The notes beneath the pieces are model-generated. The model was not told where the DNA came from and did no database searches. It worked only from the letters and a program-made list of their open reading frames with translations. DNA of 29,790 nt from Thermodesulfobacteriota bacterium (GTDB lineage Bacteria; Desulfobacterota; Syntrophia; Syntrophales; UBA5619). Below are positions 20,260 through 28,774 of the stretch, in pieces. The stretch covers positions 1-29,790 of the forward strand of contig JBFMBA010000047.1 in NCBI GenBank assembly GCA_040755475.1, given 5' to 3'. The number at the start of each line of letters is the position of its first letter. Position 1 is the first letter of the stretch. The position numbers were made by a program, and so were the translations under genes.

Positions 20260-20844
20260 ATGATACTGATGATCGACAACTACGATTCGTTTACCTACAA
20301 CCTGGTCCAGTACCTGGGCCAGCTCGGGGAAGCGGTGTCCGTCCGCAGAAACGACGAGATCTCTCTCGTGGAGATCGAGGCGATGAAGCCCGAGGCGATC
20401 TTCCTCTCCCCCGGCCCGTGCTCGCCTGAGCAGGCAGGGATCACCGTCGACTCGGTCAGGATGTTCCACCCCCGTATCCCCATCATGGGGGTCTGCCTCG
20501 GCCATCAGGCCATCGCCAGCGCCTTCGGCGGCAGAATTGTGCGGGCGGGCAGGATCATGCACGGCAAGACCTCCCCTATTCTCCATGACGGGCAGACGAT
20601 CTTCGAGGGGATGGCCAGCCCCTTTCCCGCCGGCCGCTACCACTCGCTGCTCGTGGAGCGGGAAACCCTCCCGGCCTGCCTGGAGATCAGCGCCGAGACC
20701 CGGGAGGGAGAGATCATGGGGCTTCGGCACAAGAGATGGCCCGTGGAGGGTATCCAGTTTCACCCGGAATCGATCCTGACGCCGGGCGGAAAGCGGATCA
20801 TCCGAAATTTCCTCAAAATGCTCGATCGAAAAAGGAGGCATTGA
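20260..20844 (+). CDS. trpG: Anthranilate synthase component II (glutamine amidotransferase)
   Basis: MILMIDNYDSFTYNL, SPGP, GVCLGHQ and QFHPES (Cys-His-Glu triad). Confidence 0.96.
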   Translation: MILMIDNYDSFTYNLVQYLGQLGEAVSVRRNDEISLVEIEAMKPEAIFLSPGPCSPEQAGITVDSVRMFHPRIPIMGVCLGHQAIASAFGGRIVRAGRIMHGKTSPILHDGQTIFEGMASPFPAGRYHSLLVERETLPACLEISAETREGEIMGLRHKRWPVEGIQFHPESILTPGGKRIIRNFLKMLDRKRRH

Positions 20845-20846
20845 CC

Positions 20847-21860
20847 ATGATCAGAGAAGGGATCGCCAAGGCAGTCCGCGGGGAAAACCTGCGGGAGGGC
20901 GAGATGACGGCCATCATGACGGAGGTGATGGAGGGAGCGGCGACGCCCGCCCAGATGGCCTCCTTCATGACCGCGCTGCGGATGAAGGGAGAAACGGTGG
21001 AGGAGGTGACCGGAGCGGCCCGCGTGATGCGGCATATGGCGACCCGGATCGATGCGCGCGCGCCGGTCGTGGTGGATACCTGCGGCACGGGAGGGGACGG
21101 AAGCAACACCTTCAACGTCTCCACGACCACCGCCTTCGTGGTCGCCGCGGCCGGCCTGACGGTGGCCAAGCACGGCAACCGGTCCGTTTCCAGCGGCTGC
21201 GGGAGCGCTGATCTCCTCGAGGCCCTTGGCGTCAAAATCGACGCGGACCCGGAGATCATCGAGGAGTGCCTCCAGGAGGTCGGCATCGGCTTCCTTTTCG
21301 CCCCCCGGCTCCACGGGGCGATGAAGTACGCCATCGGTCCCCGCAGGGAGATCGGCATCCGGACCATCTTCAACATGCTGGGGCCGCTCACGAATCCCGC
21401 CGGGGCCACCTCCCAGCTCATCGGGGTATACGACCCGAAGCTCACCGAGATGTTCGCCGGCGTCCTCAAAAACCTGGGAACGAAGCGCGCCTTCATCGTC
21501 CACGGCGCCGACGGCCTTGACGAGGCCACCGTCACCGGCGAGACCCGGGTCTCCGAGCTGAAGGAGGGGCTGATCACGACCTACAACATCGATCCCCAGG
21601 AGCTTTTCGGTGAGACCTACCCCGCCCACGATCTCCGGGGAGGTGACGCCGAGACGAACGCCCGGATCACGACGGAGATCCTCAGCGGTGAACGGCACGG
21701 GGCCTGCAGGCAGATCGTCGTTCTCAATGCGGCGCTGGCCATCGTGGCGGGGGGAAAGGCCCCGACGATCCGGGAAGGGGCAGAAGCGGCGGCGGACTCG
21801 ATCGACAGCGGCGCCGCGCTCAAGAAGCTGCAGGCGCTGATAGAGCGGAGCAACAGTTGA
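20847..21860 (+). CDS. trpD: Anthranilate phosphoribosyltransferase
   Basis: DTCGTGGDG, NVST, AKHGNRSVSS, RTIFNMLGPLTNP and GLDE motifs. Confidence 0.96.
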   Translation: MIREGIAKAVRGENLREGEMTAIMTEVMEGAATPAQMASFMTALRMKGETVEEVTGAARVMRHMATRIDARAPVVVDTCGTGGDGSNTFNVSTTTAFVVAAAGLTVAKHGNRSVSSGCGSADLLEALGVKIDADPEIIEECLQEVGIGFLFAPRLHGAMKYAIGPRREIGIRTIFNMLGPLTNPAGATSQLIGVYDPKLTEMFAGVLKNLGTKRAFIVHGADGLDEATVTGETRVSELKEGLITTYNIDPQELFGETYPAHDLRGGDAETNARITTEILSGERHGACRQIVVLNAALAIVAGGKAPTIREGAEAAADSIDSGAALKKLQALIERSNS

Positions 21861-21914
21861 CTGGCGGCTCCGCACTTGTCTCTGCTCCCTGTTGCACGGA
21901 AGCTACAATGAAGC

Positions 21915-22040
21915 CTTTGCATCACTTGGAAATCGTGTCCCGGAAGCACGCAGTGGAGATTTTTCGGGGCCGCCTGGCTCCGCCGCGAAGCGGGGAGGTG
22001 CAGGGTGGAAAAAGGTCCAGCGTGCGGAGGGAGCCTGATT
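21915..22040 (+). repeat. Intergenic repeat copy B (intact, about 126 bp) between trpD and trpC
   Basis: Inverted homolog of the arms at 19946-20001 and 20133-20186; here the arms are only 16 bp apart. Confidence 0.9.
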
Positions 22041-22070
22041 TTCAACGCGCTCACAATTGAGGATCGTGAC

Positions 22071-22844
22071 TTGATATTGGACGACATCATCAACGTTAAG
22101 CGCCGCGAGGTGGCGGAAAGGAAAAGCAGGACCCCCCGAGCCGTCCTGGAGAGGACCCTTCAAGGAACACCGCCGGCCCGGGATTTCCGGCGGGCGCTGG
22201 AGGGCGGCTCCTGCGCCGTGATCGCCGAGGTGAAGCGGCGCTCCCCGTCCCGGGGAACGATCCGCGGGGATGTGAATGCCGCCCTGACCGCCGCGGAATA
22301 TGAACGCTACGGAGCGGCCGCCGTCTCCGTCCTCACGGACGGGGCCTTCTTCGGGGGAAGCGACGCCGACCTGGCCGCCGTCAAGGGCGCCGTCGCACTG
22401 CCGGTCCTCCGCAAGGAGTTCATCGTCGATCCCTGGCAGATCCTGGAGACACGGGCCATGGGCGCCGACGCACTGCTGCTCATCGCCGCCGTCCTGAGCG
22501 CGGGAGAGCTGCGGGACTACGGCAATCTCGCCGCATCGCTGGGCATGGCATCGCTCGTGGAGATCCATGACCGCAGGGAGCTGGAGATGGCCCTCGGCGC
22601 AGACGCCCGGATCATCGGGATCAACAACCGGGACCTCCGGACCTTCGTAACAGATGTGGAAACATCGCGGGTGCTCGCGCCCCTCGTCCCGGGGGATCGG
22701 ACCGTCGTCAGCGAAAGCGGAATCGACTCCCGGGCTCAGATCGAAACCCTCATGCAGGCCGGTGTCCGGGCCTTCCTGATCGGGGAGGCACTGGTCGCCG
22801 CCCCGGACCGAGGGGCGAAGATGCGGGAGCTGCTGGGACGATGA
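22071..22844 (+). CDS. trpC: Indole-3-glycerol phosphate synthase
   Basis: TTG start (MILDDII) after GAGGA; IAEVKRRSPSRG, VLRKEFI, GINNRDL and VSESG motifs. Confidence 0.95.
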   Translation: MILDDIINVKRREVAERKSRTPRAVLERTLQGTPPARDFRRALEGGSCAVIAEVKRRSPSRGTIRGDVNAALTAAEYERYGAAAVSVLTDGAFFGGSDADLAAVKGAVALPVLRKEFIVDPWQILETRAMGADALLLIAAVLSAGELRDYGNLAASLGMASLVEIHDRRELEMALGADARIIGINNRDLRTFVTDVETSRVLAPLVPGDRTVVSESGIDSRAQIETLMQAGVRAFLIGEALVAAPDRGAKMRELLGR

Positions 22845-23530
22845 AGGACTGCCGTACCGAAATCAAGATCTGCGGGATCACGCGCCTCGAGGACGCCCTT
22901 TGCGCAACCGAGTGCGGGGCGGACGCCCTCGGGTTCATCTTCCATCCCGCAAGCCCCCGCTGGATCACACCCGAGAAGGCAAGGGCCATCATCACGCGTC
23001 TACCCAGCGACGTGGCGACGGTCGGCGTTTTCGTGAACGGCGACGGGGAGATGGTGGAGCAGACCGCCGATGCGTGCGGCCTCGATCTGATCCAGTTGCA
23101 CGGCGACGAATCCCCCGCGTACTGCCGCCGGTTCCCGCCCGGGCGCATGATCAAGGCCGTCTCCCCCCCCACGCCAGGGGAGATTGCAGCGCTCAACGCC
23201 TACGAAGTGCGGGCCTTTCTGATCGACGCCCGGCAGACCGGCCGCTACGGGGGGACGGGGAAGCGGTCCGACTGGAACGTGGCGAAGGCCATTCGGGAGT
23301 CGCATCCATTGATCCTCGCCGGCGGCCTGAACGCGGAAAACATCGAGGCAGCCATCGCCGCCGTCGCCCCCCACGCCGTGGACATCAACAGCGGCTGCGA
23401 GCAGGCCCCGGGGATCAAGGATCACGACCGGATACGTCGGATCATAGGGATGATTCGGGGGAGCACCCAGGGGACGATCCGCCCGGGCGGCGCGCCCGGG
23501 GCGACACCCATCTTCGGAAAGGACGGATGA
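22841..23530 (+). CDS. trpF: Phosphoribosylanthranilate isomerase
   Basis: [19 protein letters not shown] and LAGGLN motifs; ATGA overlap with trpC. Confidence 0.95.
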
Positions 23531-23534
23531 ATCA

Positions 23535-24730
<1,196 letters not shown>

Positions 24731-24731
<1 letters not shown>

Positions 24732-25567
24732 TGGGACGGATCGAAGCAAGATTCAGGACGTTGAAACAAGAAGGGCGAAAGGCACTGGTCGTTTACCTGA
24801 CCGCGGGCGATCCCACGCTGCAAGCCACCGCAAGCCTGATCCCGGCGCTCGAGGCCGCGGGAGCGGACATCGTGGAGATCGGCGTCCCCTTCTCCGATCC
24901 GACGGCGGACGGTCCCGTCATCCAGGCCGCCTCCCAGCGCGCCCTCAGGGGAGGTACGACCCTGGAGAAGATCCTCGCGATGATCGCCTCCCTTCGCCGG
25001 ACATGCGGAATTCCGATCGTCCTTTTCGGCTACTACAACCCCTTGCTGGGCTACGGGACGCAGCGGTTTGCAGCCGATGCGGCGGCTTCCGGCGTGGACG
25101 GCATCCTTGTGGTCGACCTCCCCCCCGAAGAGTCGGACGAGCTTCGCCGCTGGACCGATCCGGCGGGACTGGCGTTTATCTCGCTCATCGCCCCGACGAC
25201 CGCTCCGAAAAGGGCCCGCAGGATTCTTCGGGGTGCGGCGGGATTCGTCTATTTCATCTCCGTCACGGGCGTCACCGGAACCGCTGCCCCGCGAATCGAG
25301 GAGATCGGACATGCCATCGGCAAATTCAGGCCGATGACGACCCTTCCCGTGGCCGTCGGCTTCGGTATCTCCACGCCGGCCCAGGCGGCGGCCATCGCCC
25401 CCCTGGCGGACGGCATCGTCGTCGGCAGCGCCCTGGTCCGCCTGATCGCCGAGACGGGGCAGCGCGGCGACCCCGTCCCTGCAGCCGCCGCCTTCACCGC
25501 GATGCTCCGTCGGGCCATCGACGGCGAGGTCGCCGACGGGCGGATGCGGCCCCCCCTCCCGGAATGA
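24731..25567 (+). CDS. trpA: Tryptophan synthase alpha chain
   Basis: TAATG overlap with trpB; EIGVPFSDPTADGPVIQ, GVTG and VGFGIS motifs. Confidence 0.97.
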
Positions 25568-25690
25568 CAGCGGCACCCCCCCGGCCGAAGGGCGTGGTTT
25601 GCGGGTGCGCTTCCGGTCGCGGAAGGTGGAAATTCCCTCGAACATCGGGCAGCCGGCCGTCATCACAGTGACGACGCAATGGAAAATGTG

Positions 25691-26099: not shown

Positions 26100-26837
26100 A
26101 TGGAGAAGAAGAATAAAATCCTGGCGATCATTCAGAATTACGGGCTGATCATCATTTCCGCCGGTGTTGCGTTTGTTTACTGGCGCATCGAATCGCTCCA
26201 GCTCGGCGATACGCCCACGCTGTGGATCACCCTGATCCTTTTTTTCGGCTATGGGGCCTTCACCCAGTATTTCATCAATACCCACAAGCGGATGGCCGCC
26301 GAGATCCTGTCCCTCTCCATTACCGATCCTCTCACCGGGCTGTACAACCGCAGAGGATTCATGGCCCTTGCGGAGCAGCAGATCAGGATGGCCGAAAGGT
26401 CCAAGGAGGGACCGCTGCTCATGCTCATGTTCGCCGATCTGGATAAGATGAAATCAATCAATGACAATCTGGGTCACAAGAAGGGGGACAAGGCACTGGT
26501 CGAAGTGGCATCGATCCTCAAGAAGGCGTTCCGGGAATCGGATATCATCGCGCGGGTGGGGGGCGATGAATTTGCGGTACTGGGGACCATTGCCCAAAAC
26601 AGCGGCGTCCATCTGTTCGAAGACCGGCTGCAGCAGCAGATCGAACTCCACAATGCCCAGGAGCAAAGGGACTTCCTACTCTCCCTGAGCATCGGCAGCG
26701 CCTGCAAAGAACCGGAACACCTTCAATCGATCGATGATTTGATGTCTGCTGCCGACAAGAAGATGTACGAGCAAAAGCGCAGCAAGCTTCAGCAGGAACC
26801 CACGCAATTCCCGGCGGCGCAAGACTCCTTCGCCTGA
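26100..26837 (+). CDS. Membrane-anchored diguanylate cyclase (2 TM + GGDEF)
   Basis: TDPLTGLYNRR, DLDKMKSINDNLGHKKGD, RESD I-site and intact GGDEF. Confidence 0.92.
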   Translation: MEKKNKILAIIQNYGLIIISAGVAFVYWRIESLQLGDTPTLWITLILFFGYGAFTQYFINTHKRMAAEILSLSITDPLTGLYNRRGFMALAEQQIRMAERSKEGPLLMLMFADLDKMKSINDNLGHKKGDKALVEVASILKKAFRESDIIARVGGDEFAVLGTIAQNSGVHLFEDRLQQQIELHNAQEQRDFLLSLSIGSACKEPEHLQSIDDLMSAADKKMYEQKRSKLQQEPTQFPAAQDSFA

Positions 26838-26843
26838 TCGGAT

Positions 26844-26877
26844 CGGCGCAAAGGCCCCCTGTGGCCTCCGTTTTTTT
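26844..26877 (+). terminator. Probable terminator after the GGDEF gene
   Basis: AGGCC-(6)-GGCCT stem with a possible CGG/CCG base, then T7. Confidence 0.5.
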
Positions 26878-27010: not shown

Positions 27011-27631
27011 TCAGCTTCGCCTTTTGACGCCATGGTCCGTCAGGAATTTTTCCAGGATCTCGTAGGGCTGCGCCCCGACCACGGACCAGCCGTCAACGAC
27101 GAAGGTCGGGATGGATGAGATTCCCAGCCGCGCGGCAAGTGCCCAATCGGCATCGACCGCCTCGCTGAAGGATCTCGTTTTCAGTATCTGTGCCGCCTCC
27201 TCTTCGGGAAGCCCCGCCGCCTTTGCCATCGCGATCAATTCACCGGGTTTGGCAATGTTGATCCCATCGACATAATAGGCCCGGAACACGATATGATGGA
27301 ATTGGTCCCCCCTCCCTTTGCTCTCCGCCCACTTGCCCAGTTCGGTGGCGAGCCGGCTGTTGTAGGTCATCGTCCGGTCACCCAGGGGGATTCCCAGCTC
27401 ATCGGCCGCCCGCCTCTGGCGGGCCTTCACCTCACCGGGATCCCGGTTCATCCCCGAATAGAGCACCTCCAGGGAGAGCCCCTCCTCGGGGGTGTCGGGG
27501 TGAAGGGGAAAGGCTTTCCACTGGATGTCCACATCGAAGTTCTTCCGCAGTTTTTCAATACGCCCGGTACTGAAGTAGCACCAGGGTCAGATGTAATCCG
27601 AAAAGACTTGAATCGTTTTTTTCGTCGTCAT
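27011..27631 (-). CDS. DsbA/FrnE-family oxidoreductase, probable selenoprotein (Sec15, UPWC motif)
   Basis: The GGAGG RBS and ATG 27631 give MTTKKTIQVFSDYI-TGA-PWCYFSTGRIEKL..., in frame with the ORF-track fragment 27011..27532. The TGA (27587-89) occupies the first Cys of the family SDxxCPWC motif. IPTF cis-Pro loop present. Confidence 0.88.
27554..27574 (-). promoter_or_regulatory. Bacterial SECIS-like hairpin
   Basis: UUCAGUAC-CGGGC-GUAUUGAA: 8-bp stem, loop starting 20 nt after the UGA, with G at the second loop position. Confidence 0.7.
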
Positions 27632-27773
27632 GTGATTCCTCCCTTCTTGCCCGGTTTCATTTTCATATGCCGTTACGGCACCGCCGCCCGCCCCGCCGAG
27701 CCGCAATCCGCCCGCCGGTCGTGCCCTTTTTCTACACGATTCTGAACAGGGATGCCAGCACGGCGCTTGTCCA

Positions 27774-28508
27774 TCATCCCGGGTGAAACACCAGTGAAAG
27801 AGCCCCTTCCGGACATCCGTCGGCGCAGGTGCCGCATAAAATGCACTCCCTGTGCTCGACCCTTTTTCTCTCGACCATCTCCTCCACAGGCAGGCTCATG
27901 GGGCAATGTTCGGTGCAGCGGCGGCAGTGGACGCATTTAGCCGAATCGGCCGCGAGCCGCAGCGAGGGCCATTTTACCCGGTTTCGTAGGAATCTGCCGA
28001 TCATCATGAAAGGCGCCATCCAGCACAGATGGTGGCAGAAGGACCTTCTCCCCGCCAAAAAACCGGGCAACACAATGAGCAGCAGCAGAACGGTGAGGTA
28101 GGTGACAAAGGACTGAAGATCGCCGATCGACAGGCCGTACGTCGTCCGGTAGAAGAAATCCACCTCCCGATACCCCCCGGAACCGGCTGCAAGCAGTGCG
28201 ATCGCTGTCACCCAGGGAACCCAGATGATCCATTTGACGAGGTCACCCCGGACAACCCTTTTGTTCCGGGCCAAAAACATGGCTTCCTGGCAGCCGGCGG
28301 CCGGACAGACCCACCCGCAATATGCGCGACCCAACACCAGGGCGCTGACAAACAGGCCCGTAAAAACGACAAAACTGCCGTTGATGACGCCTTCGGCGGA
28401 TGCCTCCAGAATGAGAACGGGGGACAGATAATAGAATACCGCCGGGAATAGGAAGAAAGAAAAAAGGATCAGGCCCTTGCGGACACGCTGTCTTGTTTGA
28501 ATCACCAT
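27774..28508 (-). CDS. Membrane-bound 4Fe-4S-binding protein (NapH/MauN-like)
   Basis: TM helices, CGWVCP and CHHLCW, then two CxxCxxCxxxCP ferredoxin motifs. Likely start ATG 28508 (the ORF-track start at 28649 overlaps a promoter). Confidence 0.85.
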   Translation of the reverse strand: MVIQTRQRVRKGLILFSFFLFPAVFYYLSPVLILEASAEGVINGSFVVFTGLFVSALVLGRAYCGWVCPAAGCQEAMFLARNKRVVRGDLVKWIIWVPWVTAIALLAAGSGGYREVDFFYRTTYGLSIGDLQSFVTYLTVLLLLIVLPGFLAGRRSFCHHLCWMAPFMMIGRFLRNRVKWPSLRLAADSAKCVHCRRCTEHCPMSLPVEEMVERKRVEHRECILCGTCADGCPEGALSLVFHPG

Positions 28509-28617
28509 ATCGGCCTTTGCTGCAAGGTGGTGTGGAGCCCATTGTACCAGAAGCGACCCGCTTCGCCCTAGCGGTTTTTTCCATCGACCGGCCCGGGTGT
28601 CAGTCCGGCCTATTTCA

Positions 28618-28646
28618 TTGACACAGGGCATGGCCGGGCGTATGTT
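28618..28646 (+). promoter_or_regulatory. sigma70 promoter for the protease gene
   Basis: TTGACA-17 bp-TATGTT. Confidence 0.7.
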
Positions 28647-28774
28647 CACGCCGGAGGGTGCTTGATGGCTGATCGCAGAGGGGCATAGGCGGCCGTGACC
28701 GCAGGAAGCCCTTCAAGGCGTCACCGAAAACCACCCTGGTTAGGAAACGTCACCGATTCGGAAAGGAGAGTTCT

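Follow-up and report, generated by a model that had tools for sequence, protein, structure and literature searches.

A putative UxxC selenoprotein of the DsbA/FrnE type in a Thermodesulfobacteriota genome, with a covarying hairpin downstream of its in-frame UGA

A gene of 206 codons on the minus strand of the window (the whole 29,790-nt stretch of Thermodesulfobacteriota DNA that was analysed) very probably encodes a genuine selenocysteine-containing thiol-disulfide oxidoreductase with the active site U15-P-W-C18, an assessment that rests on comparative sequence evidence. The gene is a new member of the published DsbA-like selenoprotein family and not a new kind of system. We infer that selenocysteine (Sec) is actually inserted at UGA-15. 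In the mechanism that we propose, this codon would be recoded by SelB carrying Sec-tRNA(Sec), and SelB would be recruited by an in-frame SECIS consisting of an 8-bp stem that begins 12 nt after the UGA and a 5-nt loop of the form CG[G/U]GC. With the ribosome on the UGA, the mRNA channel would cover the first ~12 nt, and this hairpin (hairpin A) would then be the stable fold of the RNA that remains accessible. In the protein, the selenolate of U15 would attack substrate disulfides to give a selenenylsulfide that would be resolved by C18.

An in-frame TGA conserved between species

The reading frame and its landmarks are these:

27011..27631, minus strand: full coding sequence of the predicted FrnE/DsbA-like selenoprotein; translation with TGA as U gives 206 residues
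27638..27643, minus strand: Shine-Dalgarno sequence GGGAGG, read from the sequence, six nt 5' of ATG 27631
27631-27629, minus strand: start codon ATG
27587..27589, minus strand: UGA codon 15, predicted to be read as selenocysteine, first position of the U-P-W-C redox motif
27578..27580, minus strand: TGC for Cys18, the putative resolving cysteine of UxxC and the sole Cys in the protein
27011..27532, minus strand: the 173-aa ORF-track call from GTG 27532, an annotation artefact and not the product that the gene really makes

The first-pass annotation, which was made from the letters of the window, had claimed a strong ribosome-binding site and an ATG 99 nt 5' of the ORF-track start, followed by a TGA exactly at the position of the nucleophilic cysteine and an uninterrupted frame thereafter. 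Both start signals were located, at 27643-27638 and 27631, and translation from the ATG meets a single in-frame TGA, which is codon 15 and stands within SDYI-U-PWC. The translated start of the gene reads MTTKKTIQVFSDYI-[TGA]-PWCYFSTGRIEKL..., and after codon 15 the frame is open up to the terminal TGA at 27013-27011. Most orthologues have a Met start at the position equivalent to ATG 27631. The GTG at 27532 lies 99 nt 3' of this ATG, beyond the UxxC, and the 173-aa call is without the active site, as had been stated; it is also without strand beta-1 and the start of the UxxC helix of the DSBA domain.

When one genome per species was scanned, 80 loci were obtained and the motif region was present in 77 of them. 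TGA occupies the equivalent of codon 15 in 76 of these 77 species loci and TGG in one (L058). Both flanks of the codon are conserved across the 77 loci, in the motif FSDY[IV]-x-PWCYF, and so are the 14 residues before the TGA. The codon for Cys18 is invariant in the 76 Sec-form sequences (a codon alignment of 75 loci and the window). The host labels of the loci are Syntrophus/Syntrophaceae, other Desulfobacterota, Thermodesulfovibrionia/Nitrospiraceae and Candidatus Abyssobacteria. All five same-genus genomes that were tested have an orthologue with one TGA. An order-level sample of 80 other genomes gave 14 matches at E <= 1e-30, most of them with E below 1e-60, and 12 of the 14 have one in-frame TGA, including those of a more distant group at about 31% identity. 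The members of this distant DsbA-like group (G068, G076, G077, G037, G015, G023 and G065) have one in-frame TGA each, and the group may be a paralogous Sec-containing subfamily. With the same codon in the orthologues of 76 of 77 species and the protein conserved on both sides of it, sequence comparison confirms that the elements found at the TGA lie far beyond the reach of chance.

Alternation between Cys and TGA at this site, which had been put forward as a check on the annotation, is seen: two loci (L100 and L112, 60-61% identity) are true Cys forms with TGC and stand beside the 76 TGA forms. The sole TGG (Trp) among the 77, at L058:1543-1545 (JAHJQU010000359.1), is in a locus that has kept the SECIS hairpin, at -5.7 kcal/mol. 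Retention of hairpin A there suggests that the TGG is either a recent inactivation from Sec to Trp or an assembly error.

These observations bear directly on the proposal that the TGA arose lately by nonsense mutation or reflects faulty sequencing, so that the locus would be a pseudogene or would make the 173-aa product alone. Such a proposal would accommodate the 173-aa ORF that standard ORF calling yields from GTG 27532, and also the tRNA-Sec that is missing from the assembly (see below), but it is extremely improbable in the face of a TGA that 76 of the 77 species loci share at this codon, with the 14 preceding residues conserved, FSDY[IV] included. The 173-aa product would be deprived of strand beta-1 and of the entire redox motif, and the TGA is followed by a hairpin that is conserved and covaries. 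The first-pass annotation had named uniform TGC or TGT in close relatives as the pattern that would point to such a mutation; TGA is found instead in five of five same-genus genomes. The comparative data thus effectively refute the proposal.

The predicted selenocysteine is missing from database records. Among the best 120 database relatives, taken as cluster representatives, 102 start after the motif, 14 have W at the site, four have C and none has U. The expectation that pipelines would truncate the protein was therefore borne out, 102 of the 120 being N-terminally short and none carrying U, and from the 102 short, 14 W and zero U entries it follows that pipelines still mis-call the family. 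For annotation, this means that the DsbA-like UxxC family is still routinely mis-called in MAGs of anaerobes. Two of the W entries, P0010 (locus L113) and P0007 (L114), could be compared with their loci, and the records were reproduced only with TGA translated as W. P0007 and P0010 are thus gene calls made under code 4 (TGA=W) from short contigs of metagenomes; the test of the W entries as artefacts rests on these two of the 14. The P0007 record also reads through a real TGA stop.

Two mutually exclusive hairpins after the UGA

The hairpin that we favour as the SECIS has the following parts, with positions relative to the UGA given by a plus sign:

27554..27574, minus strand: predicted SECIS hairpin (hairpin A, +13..+33), with an 8-bp stem, covariation and suppressed synonymous variation
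27574-27567 (+13..+20), minus strand: SECIS 5' arm, UUCAGUAC
27566-27562 (+21..+25), minus strand: SECIS apical loop, CGGGC
27561-27554 (+26..+33), minus strand: SECIS 3' arm, GUAUUGAA

An 8-bp hairpin with a CGGGC loop, starting 20 nt after the UGA, had been described in the first-pass annotation. The hairpin exists; its placement has to be corrected, because 12 nt separate the UGA from the stem, whose first position is +13, and it is the apical loop that starts after 20 nt (+21).

The stem of hairpin A covaries. Among 75 distinct sequences the pair +16/+30 is A-U in 63, G-C in nine, G-U in two and mismatched in one, and the pairs +17/+29, +18/+28 and +20/+26 also show double changes. In an alignment of 25 sequences chosen to span the variation, for which the full 75-sequence pair counts are the unbiased figures, compensatory changes occur in four of the eight pairs, and the covariation score and paired fraction were reached by none of 500 shuffles. 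When the partner columns are slid, pairing falls from 89.5% to 20-56%. Synonymous variation is suppressed exactly over the hairpin, in codons 20-26, as is evident from the codon use (TTC 75/76, ACC 71/75, GGG 51/52, CGT 71/71, ATT 61/69, GAA 48/54). Normalised codon entropy is 0.39 for codons 16-26 and 0.85 for the 116 scorable codons that remain in the gene (Mann-Whitney p = 2e-4). Loop position +23, the third in the CG[G/U]GC loop, alternates between G and U only. The hairpin is lost in the Cys forms, with -0.9 kcal/mol in L100 and +0.8 kcal/mol in L112, the two sequences that were readable.

The published bSECIS model describes a stem of 4-16 bp that carries a loop of 3-9 nt at a distance of 16-37 nt from the UGA (PMC13188914). 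It further has a G at one of the two leading loop positions, next to which comes G or U (G[G|U]), and a minimum free energy at or below -7.5 kcal/mol (PMC13188914). Hairpin A fits in loop (5 nt), stem (8 bp), spacing (20 nt) and the G[G/U] element. The annotation had placed its SECIS in the published spacing range, and this is upheld: the hairpin that it pointed out is the one that covaries, and its loop size, G[G/U] and 20-nt distance agree with the model (PMC13188914). In energy, hairpin A alone is slightly weaker than the cut-off, at -6.8 kcal/mol against -7.5; homologues average -6.2 kcal/mol and extend from -9.8 to -3.8 kcal/mol. When the RNA is folded from +12 on, so as to imitate a ribosome that has stopped at the UGA, hairpin A is the minimum, at -9.0 kcal/mol with an extra downstream helix. 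No Rfam family was found at gathering thresholds over the whole window, and a permissive Rfam scan of 27450-27650 gave chance matches of miRNA type only.

A second hairpin can form right after the UGA, with +2..+10 paired to +16..+24 (hairpin B), and after the UGA the two are mutually exclusive. It is very unlikely that hairpin B is the functional SECIS in place of hairpin A, even though folding of the naked 68-nt RNA gives it the lowest energy (-13.2 against -6.8 kcal/mol). Its covariation lies within that of shuffles (449/500 and 308/500), two of its pairs are mismatched in 27 of 75 and 35 of 75 sequences, and its loop, 10 nt away from the UGA, would fall short of the 16-37 nt that the model allows (PMC13188914). 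During decoding of the UGA the ribosome would enclose the 5' arm of hairpin B. This hairpin is also retained, at -13.3 and -13.5 kcal/mol, in the Cys forms, where a SECIS has no role to play, and since it stays in those forms hairpin B is a by-product of the coding sequence. Hairpin B was rejected as a SECIS on its lack of covariation and its persistence in the Cys forms L100 and L112. Between the two structures the comparative data decide for hairpin A, the one singled out at first reading, as the putative SECIS.

Covariation at hairpin A, its loss from the Cys forms and the suppression of synonymous change over it combine into an unusually clean comparative signal, which makes this locus a good training or benchmark case for the detection of bacterial SECIS elements.

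Selenocysteine machinery and the genetic code

The genome, a MAG that is 83.6% complete, comprises 3.2 Mb spread over 459 contigs. The first-pass annotation had proposed a search for the Sec machinery, and this was successful for the protein genes: selA (599 bits), selD (395 bits; G000:C240:315-1241, L018) and a split selB are present. The assembly yielded no tRNA-Sec, though eight of eight same-genus genomes have one. The N-terminus of SelB, MKHLVMGTAGHVDHGKT..., is encoded at the very end of contig C293 (G000:C293:15313-15483, L013), and a C-terminal part of 347 aa, matching model positions 287-581, opens contig C209 (G000:C209:3-1046, L015); the middle, about residues 58-286, is unassembled. 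The selD gene is itself a selenoprotein gene, with an in-frame TGA at the catalytic GAG-U-ACK.

A gene for tRNA-Sec was not found in the 459-contig assembly by Infernal, by ARAGORN or by blastn with the tRNA-Sec of the genus. Infernal returned just Ser and Leu tRNAs, slightly under the cut-off, from the organism's own genome, and ARAGORN listed 39 tRNAs over all 459 contigs, none of them for Sec. A tRNA-Sec of 94 nt, scoring 74-77 bits, is present in all eight of the same-genus genomes searched, and ARAGORN called four genes extracted from that genus as tRNA-SeC with a UCA anticodon. Ten relatives have a match above the cut-off, and in four of them no more than 300 nt separate the gene from a contig end; the Sec locus seems to be hard to assemble in this group. 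The missing tRNA-Sec most likely reflects incompleteness of the assembly and not absence of the gene, and it is weak counter-evidence because the genome is 83.6% complete and broken into 459 contigs, with the gene near a contig end in four of the 10 relatives.

TGA is the commonest stop in the genome, where 1295 of the 2102 ORFs with 300 codons or more have it as their stop, and it also terminates the selenoprotein gene itself. As TGA is the main stop codon, the organism does not use code 4 or code 25. A reading of UGA as Trp or Gly by the whole organism, named in the first-pass annotation as something that could overturn it, is thereby refuted. A changed genetic code with TGA as a sense codon was excluded as a candidate on these counts, the 1295 of 2102 long ORFs together with the gene's own stop.

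A broader form of the same idea is that UGA-15 is read as a standard amino acid (Trp, Gly or Cys) through a changed code or through near-cognate read-through. We regard this as highly improbable. The W at the site in 14 of the best 120 relatives would agree with it, but the readable W entries, P0010 and P0007, are code-4 calls on TGA. The real TGG in the orthologue L058 and the failure to find a tRNA-Sec in the assembly could likewise be cited for it; against them stand a genome in which TGA is the commonest stop and ends the gene in question, and in which no tRNA with a UCA anticodon was found other than the Sec type that is expected from relatives. The genome also has selA, selD and selB, with a Sec-UGA of its own at the canonical site of selD, and hairpin A is specific to the Sec forms.

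Fold, family and genomic setting

Pfam DSBA (PF01323) matches residues 6-197 of the translated protein over profile positions 1-190 of 191 (E 7e-30), with a score of 104.6 bits against a cut-off of 25.6. The match runs from end to end across the TGA, so the residues 5' of the TGA belong to the domain and are not a leader. The best sequence matches in the PDB are FrnE of D. radiodurans (5CNW and related entries, E 2.6e-18) and SCO1869 (3GL5). In the alignment with FrnE, sdiaCPWCyi stands above sdyiUPWCyf and U15 is opposite Cys22, the N-terminal Cys of CPWC, which agrees with the earlier claim that Sec replaces the first Cys of a CxxC. An AlphaFold2 model made with 20 homologues has a mean pLDDT of 92, with a strand at 5-11 and a helix at 16-31 that begins directly after U15, and in this model the predicted position of U15 is the canonical active-site position of the thioredoxin fold. 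Foldseek ranked the FrnE structures at the top (TM 0.85-0.87, with 0.87 for 5CNW/5COH), with SCO1869, YjbH, HCCA isomerases and DsbM below them. Within the DsbA family, we assign the protein to the FrnE branch (COG2761, PF01323).

No signal peptide or membrane helix was found ahead of strand 1: there is no hydrophobic leader and beta-1 begins at residue 5. The first-pass annotation had reached the same view from the sequence, and a cytoplasmic location of the UPWC protein is probable. The FrnE subfamily (cd03024) is recognised by C-P-(W/F)-C and the lack of a signal peptide, and the window protein has UPWC and no such peptide. A C-terminal CxxxxC regeneration motif, which occurs in many of the subfamily's proteins though not in every one, is absent; the protein ends in ...GVKRRS and C18 is its only Cys.

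COG2761 is the FrnE group. In D. radiodurans, FrnE acts in the cytoplasm as a disulfide reductase/isomerase and is induced by cadmium and oxidative stress (PMC8945050). Its C-terminal CxxxxC (residues 239-244) has been proposed to regenerate the active site (PMC8945050); such a tail is also absent from the FrnE proteins of S. roseofulvus and D. maricopensis (PMC8945050), and from these two cases it follows that the motif does not define the FrnE subfamily (cd03024). FrnE of Deinococcus radiodurans (DR_0659; PDB 5CNW, 5CO3, 5COH, 5CP1, 5XWH) is the best match to the window protein in both sequence and fold. The two share C/U-P-W-C at the N-terminus of helix 1, the lack of a signal peptide and a DsbA-type Trx fold with a helical insertion; they differ in that identity is about 26-29%, that Sec takes the place of Cys22 and that the window protein is without the C-terminal CxxxxC tail. 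Since the tail is lacking, the route of re-reduction must differ from that of DR_0659. By analogy with D. radiodurans FrnE we would predict disulfide reductase or isomerase chemistry. Periplasmic DsbA of the E. coli type, kappa-class GST and HCCA isomerase share PF01323 and the fold family with the window protein at TM values of 0.5-0.78, weaker than FrnE; classical DsbA, unlike the window protein, is exported and has CPHC, and the kappa GSTs and HCCA isomerases have no CxxC.

Description of the protein as a hidden selenoprotein overstated its novelty, as the DsbA-like UxxC family has been published (PMC1088965, PMC1794560, PMC13188914). In 2005 Zhang, Fomenko & Gladyshev described a DsbA-like protein (COG2761, UXXC) from Sargasso Sea data as a new family of selenoproteins, with a predicted SECIS (PMC1088965). 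Later lists of the family's hosts name Anaeromyxobacter, Desulfovibrio, Desulfotomaculum and the Olavius delta-1 symbiont (Zhang et al. 2006, PMC1794560; PMC1976440). A 2026 review has the entry 'DsbA-like protein form 1, PF01323, UxxC' (PMC13188914). The biology is thus already known, DsbA-like UxxC selenoproteins having been described in 2005 and being included in current reviews. The window protein has in common with this family PF01323, COG2761 and a UxxC with Sec in first position, a SECIS 3' of the UGA whose small apical loop contains a G, the existence of Cys homologues and an occurrence in anaerobic deltaproteobacterial lineages; with the family representatives AACY01178397 and NIP15863.1 the comparison is by description only. 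What sets the window clade apart from the family as described is that it spans Syntrophales, other Desulfobacterota, Thermodesulfovibrionia and Abyssobacteria, that Sec is nearly fixed in it (76/77) and that its SECIS is almost invariant in nucleotides.

It is possible, though on the present evidence doubtful, that this is a distinct FrnE-like clade and more than another DsbA-like copy, one in which Sec is essentially obligatory (76/77), the SECIS is frozen across phyla and CxxxxC is absent. If such a distinct clade does exist, its features taken together would suggest that strict anaerobes have a specific redox partner or substrate for it, and it might have been spread by horizontal transfer of a cassette made up of the gene and its SECIS.

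No conserved neighbours were detected when three window neighbours were compared by tblastn with 81 related loci and the flanking ORFs were clustered, with the exception of orf28775, which is common to the window and the closest relative, L020. Because the neighbours are not kept beside the orthologues, they give no operon clue to a partner, a substrate or a function. In the window, the gene on the upstream side (27774-28649, minus strand) encodes a membrane 4Fe-4S protein. Its product, of 291 aa, has a CGWVCP motif and a C-terminal 2x[4Fe-4S] ferredoxin domain (Fer4_5, Fer4_9) and is of the NapH/polyferredoxin type. On its other side the selenoprotein gene converges on a gene for a GGDEF diguanylate cyclase (26100-26837, plus strand). 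The convergent gap between the GGDEF gene and the selenoprotein stop is 173 nt long, and a terminator-like hairpin with a T-run lies in it after the GGDEF gene, at 26852-26876 (plus strand). Further away, the window holds part of a trp operon at 20736-25671 (plus strand), in which trpD, trpC and trpF were recognised by Pfam match; the ORFs 23535-24731 and 25003-25671 are also in this region.
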